Below are positions 2,526 through 29,714 of a stretch of DNA of 64,000 bases, piece by piece. A program made the position numbers and the translations under genes. The notes under the pieces were generated by a model. That model had not been told where the DNA came from. It saw nothing but the letters and a program-made list of their open reading frames with translations, and did no database searches. Location: the NCBI RefSeq assembly GCF_054482595.1, contig NZ_CM137008.1. One strand, 5' to 3'. Every line of letters starts with the position of its first letter. Position 1 is the first letter of the stretch.

Positions 2526-2562
2526 GCTTTTTACCCTAACCTTGTACTATCTACAAAAATAA

Positions 2563-7638: not shown

Positions 7639-8923
7639 TCATTCGCTCCACATTTCCCATACGTTCATAAAACGCTACCAGCGTTTGTGCCGACTGGTTA
7701 TCCAGATAAAATCCGCGCTGTTCAAAGCCGCGCAGCAACTCATGCAGGCGTAGTTTGTCATTTTTACCCACAGTGAGATTGGTCAGCAGCAGCAGACGAT
7801 CCTGATTCAGTACCAGTACTTTTCCCGCCCGACCACGTACCTGAATGAAATCGGTGCAGATCTGGGTTTCAAGCTCGTTGATGTATTTCCGGTTAACTGT
7901 CGCACGATCAGATTTCTTATCCTGAAACTGTTCAACAGCAACGGTTAATAATTGTTTAAAAGCTTCTTCCAGCGTAACGGCTTGCGTATACTTCGATGCC
8001 GAAAGCTCGCGTTTTTCGATAAACTCCTGCAAATAATTATTGAGATCTTGCAGTAATTGAGATGAGTTATCAGAAAAATTTAAGCAATCCTGATAGACCT
8101 GCCAGAGTGGACGCTTCTTATCTCCTTTTATTTGTAGAACTTCCAGCGCGGAGAGTATTGGGAAAAGTTTTTCACTTTGACGAGCGAACCACTTATAACC
8201 AAAGCGTTTTATTTGATCCCGTTCAGAACTGGCTTTTTCAGTGTCGAGAATAAAGAAAAGCGACTTACTTTGTGGCTCGCCGTCCTGCCAGTTGTCCAGA
8301 TTGAGCGCTAGCTGGGCACACCAGCTAAAGGCATATAAACGCAGAGTATTAGTCAGTTCTTGTAACAAATATTGAGGGTGTTCTGCCAAAAACGCCAGAT
8401 CAGACTGAAAACAAGTCACCAGATAGGGAAGGTAGGGTTGTTCTTCAGAGAATGGGCCTTTTCCCAATAACTTTATTTTTTCATTGAGCTTATTTAGCAT
8501 TTGCTGCTCAATGAAGTTCAGCTTATCCTGGATAGGATATTCCAAGCTGAAATCTCCCATTAGATTAGCAAACAGAGTGCCAAGGCGTTTATCGGCCATT
8601 GAAGCGCCACTTATTTTTTCGCCATCAAACTGAGCATGAAATAGTAAAAAAAGCGGAGATACACGAAAGATATCTTCACTGGAAAAATACATCCGTTCCA
8701 GTACAGTCCAGAATGCTGGTTCATCAAGCAATTCTTGCAAATGAGCCTTGCAATCATCGCGAAATTGACTGGGAGTATAGGCATCAATTTTACGCTTCAG
8801 GGCGTAACTAAGCACCAATCCGGTGACAAATTGCCAGTTAATATCATTGTTTTTGTTACGTATCGGCAGATAACTATCCAGTTGATTATTACCTACTTTT
8901 AACGTCGTTGCGATAGGGTACAT
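7598..8923 (-). CDS. dptG: DptG/DndG-like protein (441 aa)
   Basis: 1326-bp ORF between dptF and dptH on the same strand, 4-nt gap from dptF stop; size and context match dptG. Confidence 0.7.
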   Translation of the reverse strand: MYPIATTLKVGNNQLDSYLPIRNKNNDINWQFVTGLVLSYALKRKIDAYTPSQFRDDCKAHLQELLDEPAFWTVLERMYFSSEDIFRVSPLFLLFHAQFDGEKISGASMADKRLGTLFANLMGDFSLEYPIQDKLNFIEQQMLNKLNEKIKLLGKGPFSEEQPYLPYLVTCFQSDLAFLAEHPQYLLQELTNTLRLYAFSWCAQLALNLDNWQDGEPQSKSLFFILDTEKASSERDQIKRFGYKWFARQSEKLFPILSALEVLQIKGDKKRPLWQVYQDCLNFSDNSSQLLQDLNNYLQEFIEKRELSASKYTQAVTLEEAFKQLLTVAVEQFQDKKSDRATVNRKYINELETQICTDFIQVRGRAGKVLVLNQDRLLLLTNLTVGKNDKLRLHELLRGFEQRGFYLDNQSAQTLVAFYERMGNVERMSDSGDAVYVRKTV

Positions 8924-8927
8924 TCCA

Positions 8928-10577
8928 CTAACCCTCCATACCGCTAATGGTGATCATGTCGTCGTCCGCTTTAGCGCGATAAACTCGCCGCCCACCAGCA
9001 TAAAACTTGATTTCGCTGCTGGATTTGGCCTGTTCAGTAATCAAATCAACGATTTCGTCCAGTAGAACAATGGCATTTTTATCGTATTTATTGGGGCGAT
9101 AGCCATTGTTTAATTTGTTCAAAAGTTCAAATAAATTAAGTCCGATACGAACTGGTAACAGAGAGTTTTGCCCAACTTTTAAATGCACGTCGAAGCCAGT
9201 AGGGTGGGCCGTATTTTTATTGCGGATGGCCTCCCAGTCAGGTTTCAATTCGACTGGCGCGGTTATTTTTACCCCACCATATTCACCTAAAAAGAACTCT
9301 TCTTTTTGCATACTCAATTCCGGCGCTTTGCGGTTTGCATAGCGCTGAATACCAGCAATAAGTTCGGATGTATAAAACCGGTTCAGTGCTTTTTTCTGCT
9401 CTGAGTCAGCGATGTAATTTTTGTGCAGATGCCAGATTTCTGAATAATGCTCAAATAAAGATTCATTGAAGAATACGGAAAATTTCTGATGATAATTATT
9501 CCCCAGAGATTCATCCTGCAGCAACCAGAAGAGCCGAATTAATGAAGCCGCATCACCCGGATTAACGCACTGGCGATCAAATCTAATGTGTAATGGCGCG
9601 AGTGCAGCTAAAAAATCATCCAGTTCAGGGTCAACCAGGCCCAATTCGTAGCGCAAAATAAACTGATCGATTTCATAGGTGTGCAGCCTAGCAGGATCAA
9701 AATCAGAAACTTTTTTAATCAGGTCGTTTTCTGCCCCAGTGAAAAGATTATCAAATAAATACCCCGGCCCCATAAGCAAATGATGCAGAAAATCCAATAG
9801 AGTTCGGGTTGTCACAAACTGATCTTTAATCAGGCGGGCCTTAAAGAGCTGAGTGATGAGAACATCCTGAACACCCGGCAGACAAAGTAATTTATAGTTA
9901 GCAACTTCTTTCAGCTCAGGGTTAACGGTCTCATCATGTCGAAAAATAAACTGAAACAAATTACTATCATCATTACGGGTTAAATTATCCAGTAATGTTT
10001 TAATAAACGATGAATACTGTTTTTTTTCATTAAACTGGAATTTAGGGTAATGCTCAAAGTCAAAAAAAGAACAATGCCCACTGCGGTATGGGCGGCTTTC
10101 TTCCTGATCTGCTGACAAGAAAGAATCGATCGCAGTGCGGATCGCCAGATGGCATTCAGCACCTTCTCTGGCAAAATTGGCGAGCATCCCGGTATTGATG
10201 CCTATAAGCAAAGGAGATGAGTATTGGTGATGATTGCTAAATAAATCATTTAAAGCATCAATAGCTGATTGCCGGGGAGCAAAGCTGTGTGTTGCATCCA
10301 GATGAAAACTAAAGCGCTGCTGATAACGAGGGTTTGACTTACAACGGGTCAAAATTTCGGACTTTCCATCACCACTACTGCCACACAAAAAGATGATTTC
10401 ACCGGGCTTAGCAACATCCAGATAACGTTGCAGCTCAGTTTCAATTTCTTGTTTAACAAAGAGTTGTTCTTTTAACTGATCGAACTCATCCTTTTGACGA
10501 TGCGTTACCGTGGTTACGGAAAACGAAGATGACTTCGCAAGTACACCCAACGCTTTACGTAATGTGATTGCGCTCAT
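8928..10577 (-). CDS. dptF: DptF/DndF-like P-loop ATPase (549 aa)
   Basis: 1650-bp ORF with Walker A-like motif FLCGSSGDGKSEI; first gene of the operon, preceded by an AT-rich 5' region. Confidence 0.7.
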   Translation of the reverse strand: MSAITLRKALGVLAKSSSFSVTTVTHRQKDEFDQLKEQLFVKQEIETELQRYLDVAKPGEIIFLCGSSGDGKSEILTRCKSNPRYQQRFSFHLDATHSFAPRQSAIDALNDLFSNHHQYSSPLLIGINTGMLANFAREGAECHLAIRTAIDSFLSADQEESRPYRSGHCSFFDFEHYPKFQFNEKKQYSSFIKTLLDNLTRNDDSNLFQFIFRHDETVNPELKEVANYKLLCLPGVQDVLITQLFKARLIKDQFVTTRTLLDFLHHLLMGPGYLFDNLFTGAENDLIKKVSDFDPARLHTYEIDQFILRYELGLVDPELDDFLAALAPLHIRFDRQCVNPGDAASLIRLFWLLQDESLGNNYHQKFSVFFNESLFEHYSEIWHLHKNYIADSEQKKALNRFYTSELIAGIQRYANRKAPELSMQKEEFFLGEYGGVKITAPVELKPDWEAIRNKNTAHPTGFDVHLKVGQNSLLPVRIGLNLFELLNKLNNGYRPNKYDKNAIVLLDEIVDLITEQAKSSSEIKFYAGGRRVYRAKADDDMITISGMEG

Positions 10578-10794
10578 AACTTCATGTTCTCAAAAGTAGG
10601 ATTATACCTATTCTATAAAAGCTATCCGCTGATATCTATAGGCACTTTGAGACATTTATTACGGGCAATTTTAAAATTGTATCTTTTCCATCCGTACACA
10701 AAACACATCCAGAGATGGCGGGGAAAATCCATCTATCAACCAGTTCCACTTTGGAAATTGCTTGATTAGTAGTATCTTAATCAAACACATACGC

Positions 10795-10975
10795 TAAATA
10801 TTACCCCCGATTGATTTTCGCATAGTCAAACAGCGTAATCGATCTCTCCCTATTCGCATCCAGAAAATCAGCCCACCATACTGCAAATCAGCTCGCGCTC
10901 ATCCAGATGTTCTGCCTTATGGATATACGCCCCCTTACCGATGTGACTCATCTGACGTTCAGCCGCTTTATCTCA
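10795..10975 (-). pseudogene. Decayed 3' fragment of a P4-type integrase gene (remnant of a second int copy)
   Basis: About 180 bp with roughly 75-80 percent identity (by eye) to the 3' end of the intact integrase gene at about 13930-14110 (for example gcatccagaaaatc...ttatggatatacgc...ctcatctgacgttca shared); same orientation; 5' two-thirds of the gene absent. Confidence 0.6.
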
Positions 10976-11072
10976 TGTTGTTCTGGTCTCAATACTTCCA
11001 TGCCGTTGCAATTACCTCTTAAACCAGCCCTTACCATTTTTATGGGTACGATAAGAAAACTTTATCGGGCAC

Positions 11073-11103
11073 GATCGATTTTATCGATCGATTCGATCGA
11101 AAA
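11073..11103 (+). promoter_or_regulatory. Cluster of three GATC sites inside tandem tcgatcgat-like repeats, about 90-115 bp upstream of the outer-membrane protein gene
   Basis: GATC at 11073-11076, 11086-11089 and 11095-11098, each inside CGATCG; read directly from sequence. Regulatory role is hypothetical. Confidence 0.3.
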
Positions 11104-11189
11104 CATTCCTTTTACCTTATCTTTTTCATGGTCTTAGAATGAGCAACCCCATTTATCGTTCGGGGAAAGTGATAGCGGAGATGATTGAA

Positions 11190-11930
11190 ATGAATAAGGT
11201 TATTGCGGTTTCAGCGCTTGCCATGGCAGGCATGTTTTCGACCCAGGCTCTGGCTGATGAAAGCAAAACAGGCTTTTATGTGACCGGTAAAGCAGGTGCT
11301 TCTGTTATGTCACTTGCAGACCAGCGTTTCCTGTCGGGGGATGGAGAGGAAACATCAAAATATAAAGGCGGTGATGGCCATGATACGGTATTCAGTGGCG
11401 GTATCGCGGCCGGTTATGATTTTTACCCGCAGTTCAGTATTCCGGTTCGTACGGAACTGGAGTTTTACGCTCGTGGAAAAGCTGATTCGAAGTATAACGT
11501 AGATAAAGACAGCTGGTCAGGCGGTTACTGGCGTGATGACCTGAAGAATGAGGTGTCAGTCAACACACTGATGCTGAATGCGTACTATGACTTCCGGAAT
11601 GACAGTGCATTCACACCATGGGTATCTGCAGGGATTGGCTACGCCAGAATTCACCAGAAAACAACCGGTATCAGTACCTGGGATTATGGGTACGGAAGCA
11701 GTGGTCGCGAATCGTTGTCACGTTCAGGCTCTGCTGACAACTTCGCATGGAGCCTTGGCGCGGGTGTCCGCTATGACGTAACCCCGGATATCGCTCTGGA
11801 CCTCAGCTATCGCTATCTTGATGCAGGTGATAGCAGTGTGAGTTACAAGGACGAGTGGGGCGATAAATATAAGTCAGAAGTTGATGTTAAAAGTCATGAC
11901 ATCCTGCTTGGTGTGACTTATAACTTCTGA
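11190..11930 (+). CDS. Outer-membrane beta-barrel protein, Hek/Tia/Hra-like adhesin/invasin family suspected (about 246 aa precursor)
   Basis: Start chosen at internal ATG 11190 preceded by GGAG at -12; typical signal peptide MNKVIAVSALAMAGMFSTQALA then DESK; alternating aromatic/glycine-rich beta-strand pattern; C-terminal YNF with terminal Phe typical of OMP beta-barrels. Family name is from memory only. Confidence 0.65.
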   Translation: MNKVIAVSALAMAGMFSTQALADESKTGFYVTGKAGASVMSLADQRFLSGDGEETSKYKGGDGHDTVFSGGIAAGYDFYPQFSIPVRTELEFYARGKADSKYNVDKDSWSGGYWRDDLKNEVSVNTLMLNAYYDFRNDSAFTPWVSAGIGYARIHQKTTGISTWDYGYGSSGRESLSRSGSADNFAWSLGAGVRYDVTPDIALDLSYRYLDAGDSSVSYKDEWGDKYKSEVDVKSHDILLGVTYNF

Positions 11931-12103
11931 CGACACTGCTCCTGAACGATAATACGTATATTTAGCAATTAAGATAATTGCGTATCTTCTGCAATTAAAC
12001 AGAAATACCCTGCAGTCTATTACTGCAGGGTTATCTGTTTCACAGATAATTTCTGATTTTTATTATCCTGTTCTCTTCATCATAATGTTGTCGATATACT
12101 CCG

Positions 12104-13603
12104 ATGAATATCAGAAAACTGTTTTGTCCGGGAAACACACCCCGGATTTTATTGTTTTTATTCTTTTTTGTTGTTTCTGCAATAACCACAATTGCATGCG
12201 GATACACTGAGAAGAATGCCACAGGAAATGTGCTGCTTCTGTTTCTCCTTCTTCTCCTTGCACACAGAAATACCCTCACATCCATTACAGCGCTGTTATT
12301 TCTGTTCTGTTGTGCACTGTATGCGCCTGCGGGTATGACGTACGGTAAAATCAACAACAGTTTTATTGTCGCGTTGCTGCAGACCACGGCTGATGAGGCT
12401 GCAGAGTTTACCGGGATGATTCCTGTTTATCATTTTCTGGTCAGTGCCGCGATTCTGGTATTCATGGTGATTTTCTGGCGGACACACCACCGCGGTCACC
12501 GTAACTGGCTGGCACTGCTGCTATTCGTATTATGCTCTGTAAACAGCTGGCCGTTGCGGATGGTTAAAGGAACTGTTGTGGGGACAACTGACACATTGCG
12601 TGAAATGCAGCGTTATAAACAACTGAGTCAGCACGGGGCTGATAACTGGAAAATCCTGCCGGGTGTGCCGTTGTATGACACGATTGTTATCGTTACTGGT
12701 GAGAGTGTGCGCAGGGATTATATGTCGGTATATGGCTATCCCGTGCCAACCACGCCGTGGCTGAATACTGCTCCCGGTTTATTTATTGACGGCTATACAT
12801 CGACAGCAGCCAGTACCGTACCTTCCCTGAGCCGGACACTGATTTATGACTATGAGCAGAACCCTGACTCCGGCAACAACGTGGTGGCGCTGGCAGCAAA
12901 AGCAGGATACAGCACATGGTGGATATCCAATCAGGGAAAACTGGGAGAGCATGACACACGCATCTCTGTTATTGCTTCTGATGCGGAGCATACCGTTTTC
13001 CTCAAGAAAGGCAGCTTCGCTTCCCGTAAAACGGATGACATGTTGTTGTTACAGGAAACAGAACGTGCGCTGGCGGATAAATCCTCGCCGAAGGTGATTT
13101 TCCTGCACATGATTGGCTCTCATCCGAATCCGTGTGACCGACTTAACTCCTGGCCGAATTATTACCTGGAGCAGTATCCCCGAAAGATTGCCTGTTACCT
13201 CGCCAGCATCAGTAAACTGGATAACTTTCTCGGTCAGCTTGATGGTATCCTTCGCCGGCATTCCCGTCACTTTGCAATGCTTTACTTTTCTGACCATGGG
13301 CTGTCGGTCAGCGACAGTGCTAATCCTGTTCATCATGATGGTCATGTGCAGGGGGGCTACAGCGTTCCCCTGATTATTACCGCCAGTGACATCACGTCTC
13401 ATCAGTCCGTCAGCAGGAAAATCAGTGCCCGTAATTTCGCAGGCATTTTTCAGTGGCTGACCGGTATTCGTACCGAAAATATAACGCCATTCAATCCGCT
13501 GACAGACGAAGATAATGAACCCGTTATGGTTTTTAACGGAGAGAAAAATGTGCCGGCAGACAGTCTGAAACCGCAGCCACTTATTCTTCCGGACCACAGG
13601 TAA
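12104..13603 (+). CDS. Inner-membrane sulfatase-family / phosphoethanolamine transferase-like protein (YhbX/YjgX-like, 499 aa)
   Basis: N-terminal hydrophobic helices followed by a periplasmic domain with motifs IVTGESVRRDY, HMIGSHPNP and LYFSDHG, typical of the alkaline-phosphatase-superfamily PEA transferases; position next to the leuX integrase matches the K-12 yjgX locus. Confidence 0.6.
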   Translation: MNIRKLFCPGNTPRILLFLFFFVVSAITTIACGYTEKNATGNVLLLFLLLLLAHRNTLTSITALLFLFCCALYAPAGMTYGKINNSFIVALLQTTADEAAEFTGMIPVYHFLVSAAILVFMVIFWRTHHRGHRNWLALLLFVLCSVNSWPLRMVKGTVVGTTDTLREMQRYKQLSQHGADNWKILPGVPLYDTIVIVTGESVRRDYMSVYGYPVPTTPWLNTAPGLFIDGYTSTAASTVPSLSRTLIYDYEQNPDSGNNVVALAAKAGYSTWWISNQGKLGEHDTRISVIASDAEHTVFLKKGSFASRKTDDMLLLQETERALADKSSPKVIFLHMIGSHPNPCDRLNSWPNYYLEQYPRKIACYLASISKLDNFLGQLDGILRRHSRHFAMLYFSDHGLSVSDSANPVHHDGHVQGGYSVPLIITASDITSHQSVSRKISARNFAGIFQWLTGIRTENITPFNPLTDEDNEPVMVFNGEKNVPADSLKPQPLILPDHR

Positions 13604-13926
13604 TCATATATGGCAAACTGTAATACAGTCTCTTGTACTGAAAAGGATTCTGTATAGAATAGAACCTGTATTCATATCAGCACAAGGGACCACCAAATCC
13701 CGGCAACATTCCTTACGTCAGTTATCCCGCATCACCCTGTGGGTGCGGGATTTTTTATGATGTTTCTTTTTATTGAATATATATAAATAACGAATAACTG
13801 CGGATTCTGATAATCCACCTGCAGGGAGCAATCCGGTAAACATTTAATACATCAGTTAATATCGTTTTGCCTTTTTAACAAAGAAAATATTCATGGAGTA
13901 AGTTCCCGGGCATTTGCCCGGGATGA

Positions 13927-15192
13927 TTACTGTTTTAATGGATTATTAATCTTTGCATATTCAAATGGACTGATAAATTTTTCTCTGTTTGCATCCAGAA
14001 AATCGGCCCACCATTGTAGCATCAAGCGGCGTTCTTCCAGATGCTCTGCTTTATGGATATACGCGGCCCTCACTGAATTTCGCTCCATGTGGCTCATCTG
14101 ACGTTCAACAGCATCACGAGACCACAAACCTGATTCGACCAATGAACTACAGGCCATTGTTCGAAAGCCATGACCACAAACCTCTACTTTTGTATCATAC
14201 CCCATGACCCGTAACGCACTATTTACCGTATTCTCACTCATGGGTTTGTGCGAATCGTGATCACCAATAAATATCAAGTCATGGGCCCCACAAAACTGTT
14301 TTATCTGCTTTAAAATTGCAAGAGCTTGCGTTGAAAGAGGCACTAGATGCGTTGTACGCATTTTTGAGCCTCTATGGGAATGTTTCACTCCAGGAATAGG
14401 CTCCCGCTCCGGTGGGATAGTCCATATAGACGCTTCGAAATCGATCTCTGACCAACGAGCAAAACGCAGCTCACTGGACCGAATAAAGATCAGCAAAGAG
14501 AGTTCTGTCGCCCATCGGGTTAGCGGCCTACCAGTATAGCTATCTATTTTTGTAAGCAACTCAGGGATGCGCTTTAATTCAAGCGCGGGACGATGTTGTC
14601 GATTACAGGAAGCAACCGCCCCAGCCATCTCTTGTGCCGGGTTATAATCAATTAACCCACTTTGCACTGCATAGCGCATGATGGCTGTAGTGCGCTGCTG
14701 AAGACGAGCGGCCACTTCAAGACGTCCAGACATTTCTACGGCCTTAATGGGTGCTAATAAATCTCGAGTTTTTAACTCAGCGATATTACGTTCACCAAGC
14801 GCTGCAAAAAGATTATCTTCCAGACTTTTTAGCACACGATGGGCGTGATCTTCAGACCACTTTTTATTGGTGCCATGCCACTCAATCGCGACTTCTTTAA
14901 AGGTTCGTGCTTTACTCTGTTCAACCTTATCATTTTTCTTTTTGTCTCCCGGATCGACGCCATTCGCAAGCAGCTTACGCGCCTCGTCACGACGTACTCT
15001 GGCATCCGCTAGTGTGATTTCAGGATAAACCCCAAGTGCCAGCATTTTTTGCTTTCCCTCATAACGGTACTGCAAACGCCAGTACTTAGAACCATTTGGA
15101 TGGACAAGCAGATGCATACCGCCACCATCAGTCAGCTTATATTGCTTATCCGTTGGCTTGGCTGCTCTGACTTTGATATCTGTTAATGCCAT
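13927..15192 (-). CDS. intB: P4-type tyrosine recombinase/integrase (IntB-like, 421 aa)
   Basis: Translation MALTDIKVRAAKPTDKQYKLTDGGGMHLLVHPNGSKYWRLQYRY... is a typical P4-family integrase N-terminus, with C-terminal catalytic region motifs (HGFR, Y near the C-terminus); start is adjacent to the 3' end of tRNA-Leu. Confidence 0.85.
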   Translation of the reverse strand: MALTDIKVRAAKPTDKQYKLTDGGGMHLLVHPNGSKYWRLQYRYEGKQKMLALGVYPEITLADARVRRDEARKLLANGVDPGDKKKNDKVEQSKARTFKEVAIEWHGTNKKWSEDHAHRVLKSLEDNLFAALGERNIAELKTRDLLAPIKAVEMSGRLEVAARLQQRTTAIMRYAVQSGLIDYNPAQEMAGAVASCNRQHRPALELKRIPELLTKIDSYTGRPLTRWATELSLLIFIRSSELRFARWSEIDFEASIWTIPPEREPIPGVKHSHRGSKMRTTHLVPLSTQALAILKQIKQFCGAHDLIFIGDHDSHKPMSENTVNSALRVMGYDTKVEVCGHGFRTMACSSLVESGLWSRDAVERQMSHMERNSVRAAYIHKAEHLEERRLMLQWWADFLDANREKFISPFEYAKINNPLKQ

Positions 15193-15207
15193 GCGTATTC
15201 CCTCCCT

Positions 15208-15265
15208 GTTGGTACAAGCATTATCGAACCGGAAATACCATCATCTGTACCAACATATGTTGGTA
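15208..15265 (-). promoter_or_regulatory. Repeated TGTTGGTA motif: perfect 18-bp palindrome taccaacatatgttggta (15248-15265) plus a third copy (15208-15217) upstream of int; candidate integrase/regulator binding sites in the int promoter-att region
   Basis: Motifs read directly from sequence between the int start codon (15192) and the leuX terminator. Confidence 0.3.
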
Positions 15266-15341
15266 GATGTACGTTGATATCGGTTGACCTTGAGAGAGTT
15301 AATATAGCGGGAAAGGTAGATAAACACTGGATTTCAGGCAT

Positions 15342-15366
15342 AAAAAAAGACCTCAGTTGAGGTCTA
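15342..15366 (-). terminator. Rho-independent terminator of leuX
   Basis: Hairpin agacctcagttgaggtct followed on the minus strand by a U-run (plus-strand A7 at 15342-15348), immediately 3' of the tRNA. Confidence 0.6.
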
Positions 15367-15378
15367 TTTACATACTTT

Positions 15379-15463
15379 TGGTGCCGAAGGCCGGACTCGA
15401 ACCGGCACGTATTTCTACGGTTGATTTTGAATCAACTGCGTCTACCGATTTCGCCACTTCGGC
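15379..15463 (-). tRNA. leuX: tRNA-Leu (anticodon CAA), leuX
   Basis: Minus-strand 85-nt sequence GCCGAAGTGGCGAAATCGGTAGACGCAGTTGATTCAAAATCAACCGTAGAAATACGTGCCGGTTCGAGTCCGGCCTTCGGCACCA, recognised as leuX with encoded CCA; P4-type integrase immediately 3'. Confidence 0.9.
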
Positions 15464-15658
15464 ACTGAAGAGGTATGCGGAAAACGTTGTGGATTATACC
15501 TGTCGCACGCCACCATGCAAGCGCCAGCTTGCTCGCACCTCGCTAAGTGCTGAAATTTTCAGCATTGCATACAGCGATGTGTAACCTTTGTCACACTCCA
15601 GGCACCCCGCCCTGCCATGCTCTACACTTCCCAGACAACACCAGAGAAGGACCAAAAA

Positions 15659-16678
15659 ATGTCGATGATAAAAAGCTATGCCGCAAAAGAAGCAGGCGGC
15701 GAATTGGAAGTTTATGAGTACGATCCCGGTGAACTGAAGCCATAAGATGTTGAAGTGCAGGTGGATTACTGCGGGATCTGCCATTCCGATCTGTCGATGA
15801 TCGATAACGAATGGGGATTTTCACAATATCCGCTGGTTGCCGGGCATGAGGTGATTGGGCGCGTGGTGGCACTCGGGAGCGCCGCGCAGGATAAAGGTTT
15901 GCAGGTCGGTCAGCGTGTCGGGATTGGCTGGACGGCGCGTAGCTGTGGTCACTGCGACGCCTGTATTAGCGGTAATCAGATCAACTGCGAGCAAGGTGCG
16001 GTGCCGACGATTATGAATCGCGGTGGCTTTGCCGAGAAGTTACGTGCGGACTGGCAATGGGTGATTCCACTGCCAGAAAATATTGATATCGAGTCCGCCG
16101 GGCCGCTGTTGTGCGGCGGTATCACGGTCTTTAAACCACTGTTGATGCACCATATCACTGCTACCAGCCGCGTTGGGGTAATTGGTATTGGCGGGCTGGG
16201 GCATATCGCTATAAAACTTCTGCACGCAATGGGATGCGAGGTGACGGCCTTTAGTTCTAATCCGGCGAAAGAGCAGGAAGTACTGGCGATGGGTGCCGAT
16301 AAAGTGGTGAATAGCCGCGATCCGCAGGCACTGAAAGCCCTGTCGGGGCAGTTTGATCTCATTATCAATACTGTGAACGTCAGCCTCGACTGGCAGCCTT
16401 ATTTTGAGGCGCTGACCTATGGCGGTAATTTCCATACAGTCGGTGCGGTTCTCACGCCGTTGCCGGTTCCGGCCTTTACGCTGATTGCGGGCGATCGCAG
16501 TGTCTCTGGCTCTGCTACCGGTACACCTTATGAGTTGCGTAAGCTGATGCGCTTTGCCGCCCGCAGCAAGGTTGCGCCGACTACCGAACTGTTCCCGATG
16601 TCGAAAATTAACGACGCCATCCAGCATGTGCGCGACGGTAAGGCGCGTTACCGCGTGGTTCTGAAAGCTGACTTCTGA
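15659..16678 (+). pseudogene. ahr: Zinc-dependent aldehyde reductase Ahr (YjgB) with in-frame TAA at codon 29 (15743-15745)
   Basis: ATG at 15659 gives [28 protein letters not shown] then TAA, then the frame continues [16 protein letters not shown]... through the full MDR-family alcohol dehydrogenase to 16678; the ORF track only picks up from GTG 15755. Confidence 0.65.
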
Positions 16679-16807
16679 TCTCTTTGCCGGGTGCCTGTCG
16701 CCCGGCACTTAAATCTCTTTGGAAGGCGTCTCGCAATCTGCTGAATTTAGCGGTGAAGAGTGCGCAGCCGTTGCCTATACTCCAGGCAGGAAACTGGAGG
16801 AAATCTC

Positions 16808-18310
16808 ATGAGCGAACCCCTGTTAATTGCCCGTACGCCGGACACAGAACTGTTTTTACTACCCGCTATGGCTAACCGTCACGGACTGATTACTGGCGCA
16901 ACGGGGACGGGTAAAACCGTTACGCTGCAAAAACTGGCAGAGTCATTGTCGGAAATCGGCGTGCCGGTGTTTATGGCTGATGTGAAAGGCGATCTGACCG
17001 GTATCGCGCAGGCAGGAACGGCGTCGGAAAAACTGCTCACAAGGCTTAAAAATATCGGCGTCAATGACTGGCAACCGCATGCCAATCCGGTGGTGGTGTG
17101 GGATATCTTTGGCGAGAAAGGCCATCCGGTGCGGGCGACGGTCTCGGATCTGGGGCCGCTGTTGCTGGCGCGGCTGTTGAATCTCAACGATGTGCAATCT
17201 GGCGTGCTGAATATCATTTTCCGCATTGCTGACGATCAGGGGCTGTTACTGCTCGACTTTAAAGATCTACGGGCAATTACCCAGTACATCGGCGATAACG
17301 CCAAATCTTTCCAGAATCAGTACGGTAATATCAGTAGCGCATCGGTTGGTGCCATCCAGCGCGGGCTGTTGTCGCTGGAACAGCAAGGCGCAGCACACTT
17401 CTTTGGTGAGCCGATGCTGGATATCAAAGACTGGATGCGCACCGATGCCAACGGTAAAGGCGTTATTAATATCCTCAGCGCCGAGAAGCTTTATCAGATG
17501 CCGAAACTGTACGCCGCCAGCCTGCTGTGGATGATTTCAGAGTTGTATGAACAATTGCCGGAAGCGGGCGATCTGGAGAAGCCAAAACTGGTGTTTTTCT
17601 TCGACGAAGCACATCTGCTGTTTAACGATGCACCGCAGGTACTGCTGGATAAGATTGAGCAGGTGATAAGGCTTATTCGCTCAAAAGGCGTGGGCGTCTG
17701 GTTCGTTTCGCAAAACCCGTCTGATATTCCAGATAATGTGCTCGGCCAGCTCGGTAATCGCGTTCAGCACGCTTTGCGGGCTTTTACGCCAAAAGATCAG
17801 AAAGCAGTGAAGGCAGCGGCGCAAACCATGCGGGCTAATCCGGCGTTTGATATCGAAAAGGCAATCCAGGAACTGGGGACGGGCGAAGCGTTGATCTCGT
17901 TTCTCGATGCAAAAGGAAGTCCTTCTGTGGTGGAACGGGCGATGGTGATTGCGCCTTGTTCGCGGATGGGACCGGTGACGGAAGATGAGCGCAATGGCTT
18001 GATTAATCACTCTCCGGTGTATGGCAAGTACGAGGATGACGTGGACCGGGAATCCGCCTATGAGATGTTGCAAAAAGGCTTTCAGGCCAGTACCGAGCAG
18101 CAAAATAATCCCCCCGCGAAAGGGAAAGAGGTAGCGGTAGATGACGGCATTCTTGGTGGATTGAAGGATATTTTGTTCGGCACTACCGGACCACGCGGCG
18201 GGAAGAAAGATGGTGTGGTGCAAACAATGGCCAAAAGCGCCGCTCGCCAAGTGACGAATCAGATTGTACGCGGGATGTTGGGGAGTTTGCTGGGGGGGAG
18301 AAGAAGGTAA
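16808..18310 (+). CDS. yjgR: P-loop NTPase YjgR (DUF853 family, 500 aa)
   Basis: Translation [37 protein letters not shown]... with Walker A; real start at internal ATG 16808. Confidence 0.85.
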
Positions 18311-18311
18311 G

Positions 18312-18362
18312 TCAGGCGAGATTTGTCTTTGCCTGATGCGACGCTGGCGCGTCTTATCATGC
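18312..18362. repeat. REP (repetitive extragenic palindromic) element
   Basis: gcctgatgcgacgctggcgcgtcttatcatgcc-type palindromic unit after yjgR. Confidence 0.5.
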
Positions 18363-18470
18363 CCACCCCACTGCAATATATTGAATTTTAATTATTTTTC
18401 AGGAATGAACGAAGCACACTTTGCTAACAATAATAAAGGGAGCTTTCGCTCCCTTTATTCGTTCATTTGG

Positions 18471-19553
18471 TTACGATTTTCTCATTAACAGCCACAGGCT
18501 GATTAAGAAGAAGCTGGCGCTTGGCAACAGTGCGCCAATGATCGGCGGGATGCCGTAAACCAACGTCAGCGGACCGAAGATCTGGTCCAGTACGTAGAAG
18601 ACAAAACCGAAGCTGATACCGGTGACCACACGCACGCCCATCGGTACGCTACGCAGTGGGCCAAAGATGAACGACAGCGCCATCAGCATCATCACCGCCA
18701 CGGATAGCGGCTGGAAGATTTTGCTCCACATGTTGAGCTGATAACGTCCGGCATCCTGACCGCTCGACTTCAGATACTTCACGTAGTTGTGCAAACCACT
18801 GATGGAGAGTGCATCCGGGTCCAGCGCCACCACGCCCAGTTTGTCCGGTGTGAGGTTGGTTTTCCAGGTGCCGCTCACCGTCTGCGAACCGGTAATCTGT
18901 TTCGGATTGGTCAGATCAGATTCATCAACCTGCGACAGACGCCAGACTTTATGTTCCGGGTCAAACTTCGCAGTAGCGGCATAGCGTACGGATTGCAGAC
19001 GACGATTCTCGTTAAAGGCATAAATGCTGATGCCACCTAACTCTTCGTCACCTTTAACCCGCTCAATGTAGACGAAGTTGTTGCCATCTTTCGCCCATAA
19101 GCCTTGCTGGGTAGAGAGCAACGAGCCGCCGTACATCGCCTGCGCACGGTAGTTACGCGCCATCTGTTCGCCCTGCGGCGCAACCCATTCGCCAATCGCC
19201 ATCGTCAGCAAGACCAGCGGAATGGCGGTTTTCATCACCGACAGCGCCACCTGCATACGGGTAAAACCAGAAGCCTGCATCACCACCAGTTCGCTGCGCT
19301 GCGCCAGCATCCCAAGACCAAGCAACGCCCCAAGCAGAGCCGCCATCGGGAAGAATATTTGCACATCTTTCGGCACGCTCAGCAAGGTATACATTCCTGC
19401 GCCTAACGCGTCGTAACTCCCCTGCCCGGCTTTTTTCAACTGATCGACAAACTTGATAATGCCCGACAGCGACACCAGCATGAACAGCGTCATCATGATG
19501 GTTGTGAAAATAGTTTTACCGATATAGCGGTCAAGTACGCCAAAAGGTTGCAT
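18471..19553 (-). CDS. lptG: LPS export ABC permease LptG
   Basis: Translation MQPFGVLDRYIGKTIF... recognised as LptG (360 aa); overlaps lptF stop. Confidence 0.9.
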   Translation of the reverse strand: MQPFGVLDRYIGKTIFTTIMMTLFMLVSLSGIIKFVDQLKKAGQGSYDALGAGMYTLLSVPKDVQIFFPMAALLGALLGLGMLAQRSELVVMQASGFTRMQVALSVMKTAIPLVLLTMAIGEWVAPQGEQMARNYRAQAMYGGSLLSTQQGLWAKDGNNFVYIERVKGDEELGGISIYAFNENRRLQSVRYAATAKFDPEHKVWRLSQVDESDLTNPKQITGSQTVSGTWKTNLTPDKLGVVALDPDALSISGLHNYVKYLKSSGQDAGRYQLNMWSKIFQPLSVAVMMLMALSFIFGPLRSVPMGVRVVTGISFGFVFYVLDQIFGPLTLVYGIPPIIGALLPSASFFLISLWLLMRKS

Positions 19554-20653
19554 CACACCGCTCCTTTACGCGAAAAACTGGCGCGCAGGCGGCGGACCGG
19601 CACGGTGTCCCAAAGGTTGAGAACAATCGCCAAAGCCAGATAAATCAGGTTAACGGTCCACATCCACAGCGTCGGGTCCAGCTTACCTTTACCGCCGTTC
19701 GATTTCAGGGAGGTCTGGATCAGGAAGAAAAGTAGATACAGCAGCATGGCTGGCAGCATCGACAGTACGCGTCCCTGACGTGGGTTAACCACGCTCAGCG
19801 GTACGACCATAAGTGCCATCATAAACACGGTGAATACCAACGTGATACGCCAGTTCAGTTCTGCGCGAGCACGATCGGTGTCAGTGTTCCACAATGTGCG
19901 CATGTCCATCTGGTCGGTATCGTTCGGGTCGAGCGCCACCGCCTGGTGACCAATGATCGCCTGATAATCCTGGAAGTCCGTAATGCGGAAATCACGTAAC
20001 AATGCAGTGCCTTCGAAGCGCGTTCCCTGGTTGAGAGTGACGACCTGGGAGCCGTCGCGCAGCTGGGTTAAATGTCCGGAATCGGCCACCACCACAGAAG
20101 GACGTGCATTACCTTTTGGTCGAATTTGTGCGAGGAACACATCTTTGAAATCGCTGCCGTCAACGCTTTCGATGAACAGCACCGAGCTGCCATTAGTCGC
20201 TTGCTGGAATTGCCCTTGCGCCAGCGCCGCCATGCCAGGGTTCGCTTTCGCTTCTGCTAACACTTCATCCTGATGACGCGATGACCACGGTCCCGCCCAC
20301 ATCACGTTAACCGCCGCGACGATTGCCGTGAATACCGCAAGGATCATTGCCGCTTTCACCAGAACCGCTTTGCTCAGGCCGCAGGCATGCATTACCGTAA
20401 TTTCACTTTCGGTATACAGTTTGCCCAGCGTCATCAGCAGCCCGAGGAACAGGCTTAATGGCAGGATAAGCTGCGCCATTTCCGGCACGCCCAACCCGAG
20501 AAGGGAGAGCACCAGATTCGCCGGAATATCGCCGTCAACCGCTGCGCCGAGGATCCTCACTAACTTTTGACAGAAGAAGATCAAAAGCAAGATGAAGAGT
20601 ATCGCCAGCTGGCTTTTGAGCGTCTCCCGCACCAGATATCTTATGATTATCAC
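19553..20653 (-). CDS. lptF: LPS export ABC permease LptF
   Basis: Translation MIIIRYLVRETLKSQLAILFILLLIFF... recognised as LptF (366 aa). Confidence 0.9.
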   Translation of the reverse strand: MIIIRYLVRETLKSQLAILFILLLIFFCQKLVRILGAAVDGDIPANLVLSLLGLGVPEMAQLILPLSLFLGLLMTLGKLYTESEITVMHACGLSKAVLVKAAMILAVFTAIVAAVNVMWAGPWSSRHQDEVLAEAKANPGMAALAQGQFQQATNGSSVLFIESVDGSDFKDVFLAQIRPKGNARPSVVVADSGHLTQLRDGSQVVTLNQGTRFEGTALLRDFRITDFQDYQAIIGHQAVALDPNDTDQMDMRTLWNTDTDRARAELNWRITLVFTVFMMALMVVPLSVVNPRQGRVLSMLPAMLLYLLFFLIQTSLKSNGGKGKLDPTLWMWTVNLIYLALAIVLNLWDTVPVRRLRASFSRKGAV

Positions 20654-20916
20654 TTTAAATACGCCCGTAAAAACTCGTCTTTTGCAGGATTTTAGCTTGT
20701 TTCATGGCTTAAACGTCATTTATTCTCTTGAGTCGTCGAAATCGTCGCTAAGATAATTATACTCAACGGATTCACCTCTCAGATTTTGTTCTGACGTGCC
20801 AATGCCGTAATAACGTTAAGATTAACACGAAGTCATCGCAACAGCGGACATGAGTTACGAAAGCTTGCAATTCTATCTGTAGCCACCGCCGTTGTCTTTA
20901 AGATTCAGGAGCGTAG

Positions 20917-22431
<1,515 letters not shown>

Positions 22432-22439
22432 TTGCGTCA

Positions 22440-22735
<296 letters not shown>

Positions 22736-22783
22736 CGGTGTATACCTGATGCGTATTTAAATCCACCACAAGAAGCCCCATAT

Positions 22784-23227
22784 ATGAAAAACGCAACGTT
22801 CTACCTTCTGGACAATGACACCACCGTCGATGGCTTAAGCGCCGTTGAGCAGCTGGTGTGTGAAATTGCCGCAGAACGTTGGCGCAGCGGTAAGCGCGTG
22901 CTCATCGCCTGTGAAGATGAAAAGCAGGCTTACCGGCTGGATGAAGCCCTGTGGGCGCGTCCGGCAGAAAGCTTTGTTCCGCATAATTTAGCGGGAGAAG
23001 GACCGCGCGGCGGTGCGCCGGTGGAGATCGCCTGGCCGCAAAAGCGCAGCAGCAGCCCGCGCGATATATTGATTAGTCTGCGAACAAGCTTTGCAGATTT
23101 TGCCACCGCTTTCACAGAAGTGGTAGACTTCGTCCCTTATGAAGATTCTCTGAAACAACTGGCGCGCGAACGCTATAAAGCCTACCGCGTGGCTGGTTTC
23201 AACCTGAATACGGCAACCTGGAAATAA
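22784..23227 (+). CDS. holC: DNA polymerase III chi subunit HolC
   Basis: 147-aa translation [57 protein letters not shown]...; stop overlaps the valS start. Confidence 0.9.
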
Positions 23228-26082
23228 TGGAAAAGACATATAACCCACAAGATATCGAACAGCCGCTTTACGAGCACTGGGAAAAGCAGGGCTACTTTAA
23301 GCCTAATGGCGATGAAAGCCAGGAAAGTTTCTGCATCATGATCCCGCCGCCGAACGTCACCGGCAGTTTGCATATGGGTCACGCCTTCCAGCAAACCATC
23401 ATGGATACCATGATCCGCTATCAGCGCATGCAGGGCAAAAACACCCTGTGGCAGGTCGGTACTGACCACGCCGGGATCGCTACCCAGATGGTCGTTGAGC
23501 GCAAGATTGCCGCAGAAGAAGGTAAAACCCGTCACGACTACGGCCGCGAAGCTTTCATCGACAAAATTTGGGAATGGAAAGCGGAATCCGGCGGCACGAT
23601 TACCCGTCAGATGCGCCGTCTCGGCAACTCCGTCGACTGGGAGCGTGAACGCTTCACGATGGACGAAGGCCTGTCCAATGCGGTGAAAGAAGTTTTCGTT
23701 CGTCTGTATAAAGAAGACCTGATTTACCGTGGCAAACGCCTGGTAAACTGGGATCCGAAACTGCGCACCGCTATCTCTGACCTGGAAGTGGAAAACCGCG
23801 AATCGAAAGGTTCGATGTGGCACATCCGCTATCCGCTGGCTGACGGCGCGAAAACCGCAGACGGTAAAGATTATCTGGTGGTTGCGACTACCCGTCCGGA
23901 AACCCTGTTGGGCGATACCGGCGTGGCCGTTAACCCGGAAGATCCGCGTTACAAAGACCTGATTGGCAAATATGTCATTCTACCGCTGGTTAACCGTCGT
24001 ATTCCGATCGTTGGCGACGAACACGCCGACATGGAAAAAGGCACCGGCTGCGTGAAAATCACTCCGGCGCACGACTTTAACGACTATGAAGTGGGTAAAC
24101 GTCACGCGCTGCCGATGATCAACATCCTGACCTTTGACGGCGATATCCGTGAAAGCGCCCAGGTGTTCGATACCAAAGGTAACGAATCTGACGTTTATTC
24201 CAGCGAAATCCCGGCAGAATTCCAGAAACTGGAGCGTTTTGCTGCACGTAAAGCAGTCGTTGCTGCGGTTGACGCACTCGGCCTGCTGGAAGAAATTAAA
24301 CCGCACGACCTGACCGTTCCTTACGGCGACCGTGGCGGCGTAGTTATCGAACCAATGCTGACCGACCAGTGGTACGTGCGTGCCGATGTACTGGCGAAAC
24401 CGGCGGTTGAAGCGGTTGAGAACGGCGACATTCAGTTCGTACCGAAGCAGTACGAAAACATGTATTTCTCCTGGATGCGCGATATTCAGGACTGGTGTAT
24501 CTCTCGTCAGCTGTGGTGGGGTCACCGTATCCCGGCATGGTATGACGAAGCGGGTAATGTTTATGTTGGCCGCAACGAAGAAGAAGTGCGCAAGGAAAAT
24601 AACCTCGGTGCCGACGTTGCCCTGCGTCAGGACGAAGACGTTCTCGACACCTGGTTCTCTTCTGCGCTGTGGACCTTCTCTACCCTTGGCTGGCCGGAAA
24701 ACACCGACGCCCTGCGTCAGTTCCACCCAACCAGCGTGATGGTATCCGGCTTCGACATCATCTTCTTCTGGATTGCCCGCATGATCATGATGACCATGCA
24801 CTTCATCAAAGATGAAAATGGCAAACCGCAGGTGCCGTTCCACACTGTTTACATGACAGGTCTGATTCGTGACGACGAAGGCCAGAAGATGTCCAAATCC
24901 AAGGGTAACGTTATCGACCCGCTGGATATGGTTGACGGTATTTCGCTGCCAGAACTGCTGGAAAAACGTACCGGCAATATGATGCAGCCGCAGCTGGCGG
25001 ACAAAATCCGTAAGCGCACCGAGAAGCAGTTCCCGAACGGTATTGAGCCGCACGGTACTGACGCGCTGCGCTTCACCCTGGCGGCGCTGGCGTCTACCGG
25101 TCGTGACATCAACTGGGATATGAAGCGTCTGGAAGGCTACCGTAACTTCTGTAACAAGCTGTGGAACGCCAGCCGCTTTGTGCTGATGAACACGGAAGGT
25201 CAGGATTGCGGCTTCAACGGCGGTGAAATGACGCTGTCGCTGGCGGACCGCTGGATTCTGGCGGAGTTCAACCAGACCATCAAAGCGTACCGCGAAGCGC
25301 TGGACAGCTTCCGCTTCGATATCGCCGCTGGCATTCTGTATGAATTCACCTGGAACCAGTTCTGTGACTGGTATCTGGAGCTGACCAAGCCGGTAATGAA
25401 CGGTGGCACCGAAGCCGAACTGCGTGGTACTCGCCATACGCTGGTGACTGTACTGGAAGGTCTGCTGCGCCTCGCGCATCCGATCATTCCGTTCATCACC
25501 GAAACCATCTGGCAGCGTGTGAAGGTACTTTGCGGTATCACCGCCGACACCATCATGCTGCAGCCGTTCCCGCAGTATGATGCGTCTCAGGTTGATGAAG
25601 CGGCGCTGGCCGACACCGAGTGGCTGAAACAGGCGATCGTTGCCGTACGTAACATCCGTGCAGAAATGAATATCGCGCCGGGCAAACCGCTGGAGCTGCT
25701 GCTGCGTGGTTGCAGCGCGGATGCAGAACGTCGCGTAAATGAAAACCGTGGCTTCCTGCAAACCCTGGCGCGTCTGGAAAGCATCACCGTGCTGCCTGCC
25801 GATGACAAAGGTCCGGTTTCCGTTACGAAGATCATCGACGGCGCAGAGCTGCTGATCCCGATGGCTGGCCTCATCAACAAAGAAGATGAGCTGGCGCGTC
25901 TGGCGAAAGAAGTGGCGAAGATCGAAGGCGAAATCAGCCGTATCGAGAACAAGCTGGCGAATGAAGGCTTTGTCGCCCGCGCACCGGAAGCGGTCATCGC
26001 GAAAGAGCGTGAGAAGCTGGAAGGCTATGCAGAAGCGAAAGCTAAGCTGATTGAACAGCAGGCTGTTATCGCCGCGCTGTAA
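23227..26082 (+). CDS. valS: Valine--tRNA ligase ValS
   Basis: 951-aa translation with class I HIGH ([15 protein letters not shown]) and KMSKS motifs and a C-terminal coiled coil. Confidence 0.95.
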
Positions 26083-26106
26083 TCAAAACACAGTGATGAA
26101 AACGAA

Positions 26107-26132
26107 GGCCGGAGCATGCTCCGGCCTTTTTT
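26107..26132 (+). terminator. Rho-independent terminator downstream of valS
   Basis: Palindrome ggccggagcatgctccggcc followed by a T6 run. Confidence 0.6.
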
Positions 26133-26137
26133 ATCTC

Positions 26138-27334
26138 TTACAGAAATGGTAAAGAAGGCATGATTCCCCGTGAAATACTGGCTAAGAAGCCTTTATCTGG
26201 TTGTTCTTCTTTATTGATTAAAGGAAGGTCATCCAAATCGCCCAGCAAATACGTATTTTTTGCCTGCCAGTCAATCATCCATATTTTCAGCAGTGGATAA
26301 GCCAGACCGCCCGTAATCCCGGATATCACCACCAACGCACACATGCGATAAAGCATACCGTGGTATGTTAAAGTTGAGCGAAAACGAATACGCCCATCAT
26401 TCAGTGACAGGTTGCTCATAAAATGATTTCGCAACGACACCGTTAAATAACTGGTGCTAACAGCAATCCCAAAATAATAGATTAACTGCGCGATTATCAT
26501 TTTACGCTGCATTTCCATAAATTGCTGTAAATTCTCAATATCATCATTTGCATACACAGAACTATCATACGCATTTAATATTTGATCGAAGATAATATAA
26601 CCAGCAACAGCGAGAAAAGGTAATAAAGCTAAAAATGCGAGGATGGCATATTTTATACAATACGCAGTATCTAATTTCACCTTGAAACGATGTATACCGA
26701 AACTGGTATTGCTCCAGAGAAAACTCATTACCAGGCTATATAAAGTACCATTAAAAATACCAATGGAAACAATACCAACTATTGCCATCAGAACCACAGA
26801 TATAATAACACTACTTGAACTATTGGCATGTAGCATCTTTGTCGAGATAAAGAAAACAGTCCCCATCCCAATGGCCATTAAAATCGGCAAGAAAAAGGTT
26901 ACCCACCAGAACCCTTTCATAGAGCAATTAAAACTAAATCTTACGCCGTTGAGACTAGTCATCAAGGCCTGATAACGCAGTCCTTTTACTGCCATAAATA
27001 TAAGCAAAACCAACAGTGACAAAGTCAAAACACAGCCAACAAGCGGCATATCTGCTGACACTGTCATTAAGATTGCGAAATAGAAAAAAACAAAAACAAG
27101 ACAACTAAAAAAAACATTCCCACCAGTAATTCCATAAGAAAATCGTTGTCCGTTAACTTCCATATTAGCATAGAGATAACGCCTACATTTCATTAATGCC
27201 CATGGTAAATAGATACCTAGCGTTATAATCGTTAACAACACATTCACCACACAAATAAGAAAATATCTCTCACCTGTACCATGAAAAACAAACGAATGGG
27301 ACGGAACATCCATTTCATTAATAACTTGAGCCAT
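26138..27334 (-). CDS. yjgN: Inner membrane protein YjgN (DUF898)
   Basis: Polytopic membrane protein at the K-12 yjgN position; start probably at internal ATG (MAQVINEMDV...). Confidence 0.8.
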   Translation of the reverse strand: MAQVINEMDVPSHSFVFHGTGERYFLICVVNVLLTIITLGIYLPWALMKCRRYLYANMEVNGQRFSYGITGGNVFFSCLVFVFFYFAILMTVSADMPLVGCVLTLSLLVLLIFMAVKGLRYQALMTSLNGVRFSFNCSMKGFWWVTFFLPILMAIGMGTVFFISTKMLHANSSSSVIISVVLMAIVGIVSIGIFNGTLYSLVMSFLWSNTSFGIHRFKVKLDTAYCIKYAILAFLALLPFLAVAGYIIFDQILNAYDSSVYANDDIENLQQFMEMQRKMIIAQLIYYFGIAVSTSYLTVSLRNHFMSNLSLNDGRIRFRSTLTYHGMLYRMCALVVISGITGGLAYPLLKIWMIDWQAKNTYLLGDLDDLPLINKEEQPDKGFLASISRGIMPSLPFL

Positions 27335-27526
27335 AAAAATTCCCTGAATTAAAAAATCCATTGATATAATTTATAGATACAGACAGTAAAATGTTCTGCC
27401 ACGTTACAATACTCTTATCAGTAATAGGCTGGCAAAAACTTTATTGCTTTATAAGATGCTTGCGCACGTAAGAAGAGAGTGGTATTAAACAAATGTATAA
27501 TTACTTTATTTTTATTGGGTTAAACT

Positions 27527-28030
27527 ATGAATAACATTGCGCCGCAATCACCTGTAATGCGTCGCCTGACGTTGCAGGATAATCCTGCTATCGCCCGCGT
27601 CATTCGTCAGGTATCCGCCGAATACGGTCTTACCGCTGATAAAGGCTACACCGTCGCCGATCCGAATCTTGACGAGCTGTATCAAGTGTATAGTCAGCCT
27701 GGTCATGCATATTGGGTGGTTGAGTACGAGGGTGAAGTGGTCGGCGGCGGTGGGATTGCGCCATTAGCAGGTAGTGAATCGGACATTTGCGAACTGCAAA
27801 AGATGTATTTTCTTCCGGCTATTCGCGGCAAAGGGCTGGCAAAAAAACTGGCCTTAAAGGCGATGGAGGAGGCAAGAGAAATGGGCTTCAAACGCTGCTA
27901 TCTGGAAACGACCGCTTTTTTGAAAGAAGCGATTGGTTTGTATGAACATTTAGGTTTTCAACATATCGACTATGCACTTGGCTGCACGGGCCATGTTGAT
28001 TGTGAAGTGCGGATGTTGCGCGAACTCTAA
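27527..28030 (+). CDS. yjgM: GNAT-family N-acetyltransferase YjgM
   Basis: 167-aa translation with acetyl-CoA binding region ([18 protein letters not shown]); position matches K-12. Confidence 0.8.
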
Positions 28031-28075
28031 AAAAATGCCCGCTAGTGTGTGCTATCGGGCATTTTAATCAATTAA

Positions 28076-28492
28076 TTAGTGGCGAACACCGTCATCGTCT
28101 TCATCGACAAAATCTTCATCGTCGCCGTCTTCGCCGTTGGGATCTTCAAAGTAAGTGCCCCAACCGTCGTACTCAACGTCAAATTTCTCCGCCAGCGTCA
28201 TCAGTTGTTCAACCTGGGCATCGATCAGATCGGCATTCAACGCGCACTCGCTGAGGATGTCGCAGCAAATCACGATATCACCATCTTCAACTTCCAGCTC
28301 TTCTGGATCGGTCACTTCGTAACCGAGTTTAAACGCTTCAACTGCCGCTTTTTCCAGAGTTTCCAGATCGTCTGCGGAAAGATGGTGTTCGATGGTATAC
28401 AGCGCGTCCGGATCGCTGCCATCTTCCAGTAATTCTTCAATAATCAAACGTGTTTCTTCACGCTGTTCTTCCAGTTGTTCCGGGTTTGCCAT
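28076..28492 (-). CDS. rraB: RNase E inhibitor RraB (YjgD)
   Basis: 138-aa highly acidic protein [39 protein letters not shown]... Confidence 0.85.
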
Positions 28493-28653
28493 GGCTCATT
28501 CCTCTTAATGTCCTGCCGATACTCTTATTGTCACACACCACTGACATTGCCTCCACCTTTGTGACAAAGATTTATGCTTTAGACTTGCAAATGAATAATC
28601 ATCCATATAAATTGAATTTTAATTCATTGAGGCGTTAGCCACAGGAGGGATCT

Positions 28654-29658: not shown

Positions 29659-29674
29659 TTGATATCGCTATAAA

Positions 29675-29706
29675 GATGCCGGGAAATACAAAACTATCCC
29701 GGCATC
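29675..29706. terminator. Bidirectional hairpin terminator between convergent argI and yjgL
   Basis: 10-bp stem gatgccggga / tcccggcatc with a 12-nt loop, T-rich flanks on both sides. Confidence 0.5.
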
Positions 29707-29714
29707 ACATTATT

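Follow-up and report, generated by a model that had tools for sequence, protein, structure and literature searches.

An ahr-yjgR junction without idn genes in Escherichia coli, likely the empty allele of an old presence/absence locus

We analysed 64,000 nt of contig NZ_CM137008.1 (GCF_054482595.1), read on one strand and hereafter called the window. In this window, ahr (15659-16678, plus strand, stop codon TGA at 16676-16678) is directly followed by yjgR (16808-18310, plus strand, ATG at 16808), the latter name being given by the RefSeq annotation of the near-identical strain DETEC-C31. To the left of ahr lie leuX on the minus strand and then a P4-type integrase gene; to the right of yjgR lie lptG and lptF (both on the minus strand), pepA, holC and valS. 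The main features of this neighbourhood are as follows.

1-15192 (no strand assigned): leuX-linked island with dnd/dpt genes and genes for an outer-membrane protein, a phosphoethanolamine transferase and an integrase
Within the island: 3' end of dndD and dndE (~1-787), a DGQHR-domain gene, dptH (2563-7638), dptG (7598-8923) and dptF (8928-10577)
13927-15192: P4-type integrase
15379-15463 (minus): leuX tRNA-Leu, attachment point of the variable island to its left (Rfam tRNA match at 15382-15463, 59.4 bits; 100% identical to K-12 leuX)
15659-16678 (plus): ahr (yjgB), NADPH-dependent aldehyde reductase gene, left flank of the slot (96.9% nucleotide identity to K-12 ahr)
16808-18310 (plus): yjgR, encoding a HerA-like/DUF853 P-loop protein of 500 aa, right flank of the slot (96.5% nucleotide identity to K-12 yjgR)
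18471-20653 (minus): lptG and lptF, core genes continuing the K-12 order rightward (K-12 and DETEC-C31 annotation, K-12 alignment)

The leuX island of the window carries a DNA phosphorothioation defence system. Window positions 1-11000 are 100% identical to YZLc23-1, SX23, E29 and other genomes, in which they are annotated as dndBCDE and dptFGH, and at least 80% of this segment is held by only 177 of 5,426 complete E. coli genomes. The cargo of the island differs among strains: dnd/dpt genes in the window and YZLc23-1, a type I restriction-modification system in DETEC-C31 (a strain that otherwise matches the window fully across ahr-yjgR), IS elements and a broken phosphoethanolamine transferase gene in K-12, and other cargo in Nissle 1917 and 15.TR.026. 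Together with a further allele in which ahr is largely deleted (described below), these differences bear out an earlier note on this DNA, which had called the ahr-leuX neighbourhood a hotspot of gene-content variation. The phosphoethanolamine transferase gene beside the leuX integrase (12104-13603, 499 aa) is intact in the window, and its K-12 counterpart is a frameshifted, truncated pseudogene.

The idn cassette encodes GntII, the pathway for L-idonate and 5-ketogluconate, and consists of idnK and, divergently, idnD-idnO-idnT-idnR. Their products are a gluconokinase (idnK), L-idonate 5-dehydrogenase (idnD), 5-ketogluconate reductase (idnO), a transporter (idnT) and a LacI-type regulator (idnR). 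In E. coli K-12 the GntII/idn locus (idnK, idnDOTR) was reportedly described by Bausch and co-workers in 1998.

The earlier note had placed the K-12 idn cluster in the interval from ahr to yjgR, had estimated the gap between the two genes in this DNA at about 130 bp and had concluded that the cluster seems to be missing here; it named a K-12 reference with adjacent ahr and yjgR as the observation that would refute it, and proposed an alignment of the junction to K-12. The RefSeq-annotated K-12 reference (NZ_CP047127, locus L001) has the order leuX, ahr, idnK (minus strand), idnD, idnO, idnT, idnR, yjgR, lptG and lptF, in agreement with that placement, and ahr and yjgR are not adjacent in it. 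The gap in the window measures 129 bp and occupies exactly 16679-16807. When the junction was aligned to K-12 (pairwise local alignment), a break point was obtained on each side: K-12 homology ends at the ahr stop codon (window 16678, L001 5913) and restarts at window 16769 (L001 11001), 39 bp upstream of the yjgR ATG. A 90-bp stretch of the window (16679-16768) thus corresponds in position to 5,087 bp in K-12 (L001 5914-11000, idnK-idnD-idnO-idnT-idnR), which have no counterpart here. The two genomes share the slot and its flanks, with leuX-ahr on one side and yjgR-lptG-lptF-pepA on the other, whereas the window lacks all five idn genes and has the 90-bp spacer instead. A tblastn search of the whole 64-kb window with the five K-12 Idn proteins (E-value of at most 1e-3) found no idn gene, and the matches obtained were distant paralogues only, with 21-33% identity (ahr itself, bdcA and a LacI-family gene).

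The gap itself looks like ordinary DNA between genes and could be divided into the following parts.

16679-16807 (plus): entire intergenic region between ahr and yjgR in the empty allele, 129 bp (window read and K-12 alignment)
16679-16768 (plus): 90-bp spacer specific to the empty allele, without a K-12 counterpart and present in 3,222 of 5,426 genomes
16679-16690 (plus): 12-nt string TCTCTTTGCCGG, the start of the spacer, with an exact match at the end of the E. coli idn segment
16685-16720 (plus): terminator-like hairpin after ahr, with a 9-bp GC-rich stem UGCCGGGUG/CGCCCGGCA (16685-16707), the loop CCUGU and a weak U-rich tail
16769-16807 (plus): yjgR leader, common to both alleles and to other genera (aligned with K-12, Citrobacter, Enterobacter and Leclercia)

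The string TCTCTTTGCCGG deserves attention because it also ends the idn segment in idn-positive E. coli alleles, one base before homology restarts (L001 10988, L086 17078 and L088 14288). A shared run of 12 nt was reached in none of 20,000 shuffles, the longest shuffled run being 10 nt. The match is exact in E. coli only and partial in Citrobacter. The hairpin was the sole match of a terminator scan in the scanned region, and its stem was also seen in the minimum free energy fold; its tail, CUUAAAUCUCUUU, is weakly U-rich. Citrobacter werkmanii also has a hairpin at the equivalent position after ahr, although its sequence differs, which suggests that the hairpin of the window may function as the ahr terminator. 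In E. albertii the remaining upstream block of the spacer (~16720-16768) is almost unchanged, and in C. werkmanii its conservation is good; a CGCAA-N6-GAATTTA motif within it recurs, equally far from the leader, in Enterobacter cloacae and Leclercia. The 39-bp leader contains a GTTGCCTATACTCC block and a GGAGG Shine-Dalgarno sequence at 16796-16800.

A search of the gap for structured RNA gave no Rfam match at an E-value of at most 1, and the spacer folds no better than shuffled sequences (z = -1.3). A scan of 16500-16950 for a sigma-70 consensus promoter likewise gave no match. We also considered the 90-bp spacer as a degraded idn remnant and rejected this, as its local alignment scores against K-12 and Citrobacter idn DNA (14-15) are those of shuffled sequence (13.4-13.9). 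Downstream of yjgR, positions 18330-18362 weakly match the REP-derived naRNA4 family (28.7 bits against a gathering score of 59.5; E = 0.023), and a REP element is the probable explanation.

The left flank of the gap carries a change of its own. A single C>T at 15743, the sole difference between the window and DETEC-C31 over 12869-30929, turns codon 29 of ahr into a premature TAA (Q29*, 15743-15745), so that the translation reads GELKP*DVEV in the window versus GELRPQDVEV in K-12; both K-12 and DETEC-C31 have Gln at this position. The nonsense codon is private to the window: it was found in none of the 5,263 complete E. coli genomes holding this segment, the best matches being 99.1% identical, that is, one mismatch. 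A restart at GTG 15755 would drop the first 32 residues of the product. It is probable that ahr is inactive in this strain, or else the base is a sequencing error. Over the slightly longer interval ~12769-30929, four base differences separate the window from DETEC-C31, and from ~30930 the two sequences lose register or diverge, inside an ORF for a hypothetical protein of 598 aa (29715-31511) between argF and tabA.

Both flanking genes, and above all yjgR, are unusually diverged within E. coli. In comparisons of the window and of loci L086 and L088 with K-12 (L001), yjgR is 93.9-96.5% identical versus 98.3-99.5% for lptG/lptF and 97.2-99.3% for pepA. Further to the right, yjgM (27527-28030) is 93.8% identical to K-12. 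Only 33 genomes are at least 99% identical to the window over 15200-18400.

To place the window in the species, 5,426 complete E. coli genomes were used as a population sample. The contiguous leuX-ahr-yjgR stretch (at least 80% of the query) was present in 3,212 genomes and the 90-bp spacer in 3,222 (90-100% identity, at least 95% in all but three). The K-12 idn segment was present in 2,055 genomes and never on a plasmid; the ahr-idnK junction was found in 2,051 genomes and the idnR-yjgR junction in 2,052, so that nearly all carriers have the same two break points, left and right. The locus is effectively biallelic in E. coli, with ~59% empty, ~38% idn and ~3% other alleles, although this split describes a biased sample, RefSeq complete genomes with many K-12 derivatives and clinical clones, and not natural frequencies. 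K-12 is the holder of the minority allele, and the empty arrangement is the commoner one. From the counts and junctions, the spacer-carrying and idn-carrying sets of genomes appear not to overlap.

The window, with the ahr stop codon followed by the 90-bp spacer and then the shared yjgR leader, belongs to the empty allele. The same allele was found in O157:H7, O111:H8, Nissle 1917 and an ST131 strain, and idn-positive genomes include O104:H4 and ST1193. The junction and spacer of other empty E. coli (O157:H7, Nissle 1917, O111:H8, DETEC-C31) and of E. albertii are as in the window, with no structural difference, and the window spacer is 100% identical to that of O157:H7 strains; the ahr nonsense codon distinguishes the window from all other empty-allele genomes. 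As this locus is the site of 2,051-2,052 of the 2,055 idn clusters, the idn genes are almost certainly absent from the strain as a whole, beyond the 64 kb of the window.

Several rarer states of the locus were also observed. One genome of the small class of other alleles (H5) has an IS1 insertion. A third allele has lost the greater part of ahr together with the first half of the 90-bp spacer by deletion, and a short ahr fragment lies beside yjgR; this allele is carried by YZLc23-1 (L085 24657-24892) and FCI56 (L084 5807-5981), the former having the same dnd/dpt island as the window and a different ahr state. Two E. coli proteins of 556 aa (P0071 and P0073) join a LacI HTH domain to the DUF853/HerA_C domain of YjgR, the HTH part being 93% identical to IdnR over 65% of its length, and they point to rare alleles in which idnR and yjgR may have been fused by deletion. 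In MLI104K2 (NZ_CP116925, L083 9230-9840), the space between ahr and yjgR is filled by ~600-700 bp of homopolymer runs of G, C and T, which the annotation lists as a hypothetical protein. We rejected this sequence as an allele with decayed idnT/idnR remnants (84-88% identity), as the homopolymer noise is an assembly artefact; possibly it covers a real idn cluster.

Outside E. coli, the locus was followed in at least eight Enterobacteriaceae and Yersinia loci from a scan of genome contigs with YjgR, a thin survey in which the matches listed were mostly from Betaproteobacteria. Both alleles were found beyond the species. E. albertii and C. werkmanii have an empty ahr-yjgR slot with the spacer conserved (partly so in C. 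werkmanii), and the slot is filled by idnK-idnDOTR in Citrobacter sp. FP75 and C. amalonaticus, with the break points of K-12. Between FP75 and K-12 the nucleotide identity is 78-83% for the idn genes and 82-85% for the flanks; as the idn genes of FP75 diverge from those of K-12 about as much as the flanking core genes do, the idn allele would also be old. Consistent with a movable unit, the five genes are found together in unrelated contexts in Trabulsiella odontotermitis and Mangrovibacter, where homology does not extend past the stop codon of idnR. A distance of ~1.8-1.9 kb separates ahr from yjgR in Enterobacter, Leclercia and Enterobacter sp. Ag1. The slot of E. cloacae holds one 548-aa ORF on the opposite strand (L006 8217-9863), which, judged by eye, we take to resemble a dihydroxyacetone kinase and which is a third kind of occupant; similar gaps are present in L007 and L008.

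The idn cassette of K-12 has a GC content of 47.3% versus 54-56% in its flanks. According to the K-12 annotation the segment contains the five idn genes only, with no integrase or transposase, and no direct or inverted shared word of at least 8 nt was found within 80 bp on either side of the two K-12 junctions. Among the usual marks of a mobile element it therefore shows a base composition unlike the core, and neither an integrase nor repeats. The leuX island, like KpLE2 of K-12 a tRNA-linked island, resembles the cassette in being accessory and of lower GC content than the core, but it has a P4-type integrase beside the tRNA gene and strain-variable cargo, whereas the cassette has no integrase, tRNA attachment site or flanking repeats. 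Within E. coli the cassette also shows little diversity. Among K-12, an ST1193 strain and the gull isolate 15.TR.026, the idn genes are 98.8-99.9% identical, compared with 96.0-97.7% for ahr and 93.9-94.1% for yjgR, and 1,961 of the 2,055 idn-positive genomes are at least 99% identical to the K-12 idn segment. Given its lower GC content, its lack of integrase and terminal repeats, its unrelated contexts in other genera and its divergence, far below that of the flanks within E. coli, the five-gene cassette is probably an old insertion.

It is likely that the window represents the empty allele of a two-allele presence/absence locus that arose by an old, single insertion of the cassette, with the alleles exchanged since then via the flanks. 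Both alleles have fixed junctions, both are common in E. coli and both are present in Citrobacter with the same junctions. The direction of change, insertion rather than deletion, is what we infer from these sequence comparisons: ahr-spacer-yjgR would be the older state of the site, and the cassette would have entered once, as a unit, no later than in the common ancestor of Escherichia and Citrobacter, unless the allele was passed between the two. Because TCTCTTTGCCGG both starts the spacer and ends the E. coli idn segment, it suggests an entry point immediately after the ahr stop codon, accompanied by the loss of ~78 bp of spacer; this step is tentative, since the Citrobacter match to the string is partial. 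The predicted intermediate, an idn cluster together with the full 90-bp spacer, was found in no genome. Afterwards, homologous recombination within the core genes on either side, and not mobile-element machinery, would most likely have exchanged the alleles among lineages. The distribution of idn across E. coli is patchy, and a cassette much younger than its flanks within the species is as expected of recombinational spread through homologous flanks.

An alternative history starts from an idn-positive ancestor of the K-12 type, with the cluster lost by deletion in this strain or in its recent lineage. The cluster is indeed present at this site in K-12 and ~38% of genomes, local deletions are known here (YZLc23-1 and FCI56 have lost most of ahr, and some E. 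coli encode an IdnR-YjgR fusion protein), and the absence of idnDOTK from Salmonella Typhi has been read as loss (PMC6138749). A deletion, however, leaves only sequence that was there before, whereas nothing in the idn allele corresponds to the 90-bp spacer, which recurs with the same junction in at least 3,200 genomes of many lineages, in E. albertii and in C. werkmanii, and is partly conserved as far as Enterobacter and Leclercia. Since the spacer is absent from the idn allele and conserved in E. albertii and C. werkmanii, the empty allele cannot derive from the present idn allele by simple deletion. We regard a recent deletion as unlikely and largely refuted.

Two further readings concern the genome rather than its history. 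The idn genes might be retained at another chromosomal or plasmid site, given that the cassette occurs in other contexts in Trabulsiella and Mangrovibacter and that 64 kb of this genome were read, but this is very improbable when 2,051-2,052 of the 2,055 E. coli idn clusters have the ahr and yjgR junctions, none is on a plasmid and the window holds no idn gene. Even less credit can be given to a collapsed or mis-joined contig behind the ahr-yjgR adjacency. Bad assemblies do occur at this locus, as in MLI104K2 with its ~700 bp of homopolymer noise; here, by contrast, the sequence is clean and the junction is base-for-base identical to DETEC-C31 and common to thousands of independent complete genomes, so that the chance of such an artefact is close to nil. 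A broader hypothesis is that the locus is a very old polymorphism across species and genus borders, kept by niche-dependent (balancing) selection on the use of L-idonate and 5-ketogluconate, with a low-diversity cassette that recombination has repeatedly re-introduced into diverged flanks; we consider this possible but somewhat doubtful.

That idn genes are accessory is already known from pangenome studies, and their absence from this strain is real and ordinary. The idnODRKT genes were found in 83% of pks-positive versus ~31% of pks-negative E. coli, and idn is absent from the whole of one ST95 clade but present in the others (PMC8545132). HUS-associated STEC showed an enrichment of terms for L-idonate degradation (PMC4216125), and a study of meat plants picked up idn k-mers (PMC10269509). 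The idnDOTK genes are missing from Salmonella Typhi, mutation of idnD in Salmonella lowers fitness in the gut of farm animals (PMC6138749), and S. Pullorum has idnT and idnO pseudogenes (PMC6054384). These losses resemble the present case in that the pathway is dispensable, variable within a species and tied to gut versus extra-intestinal life (PMC6138749, PMC6054384); the likeness is drawn from the literature and concerns a different genus, whose closest IdnR match was 56% identical among the matches listed. We have not seen earlier descriptions of the fixed junctions, of the spacer or of the presence of both alleles in Escherichia and Citrobacter, details that leave the category of the finding unchanged.

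The significance of the empty slot is small beyond bookkeeping. Judging from its gene content, we predict no growth of the strain via GntII on L-idonate or 5-ketogluconate, nutrients that the papers cited above tie to gut colonisation, and the main gluconate system GntI, encoded elsewhere, should stay unaffected. K-12 should not be taken as the default gene order at the ahr-yjgR locus, for which the 90-bp spacer or the idn junctions offer a simple typing marker. The locus would also provide an example of a metabolic cassette swapped through homologous flanks beside a classical tRNA island.
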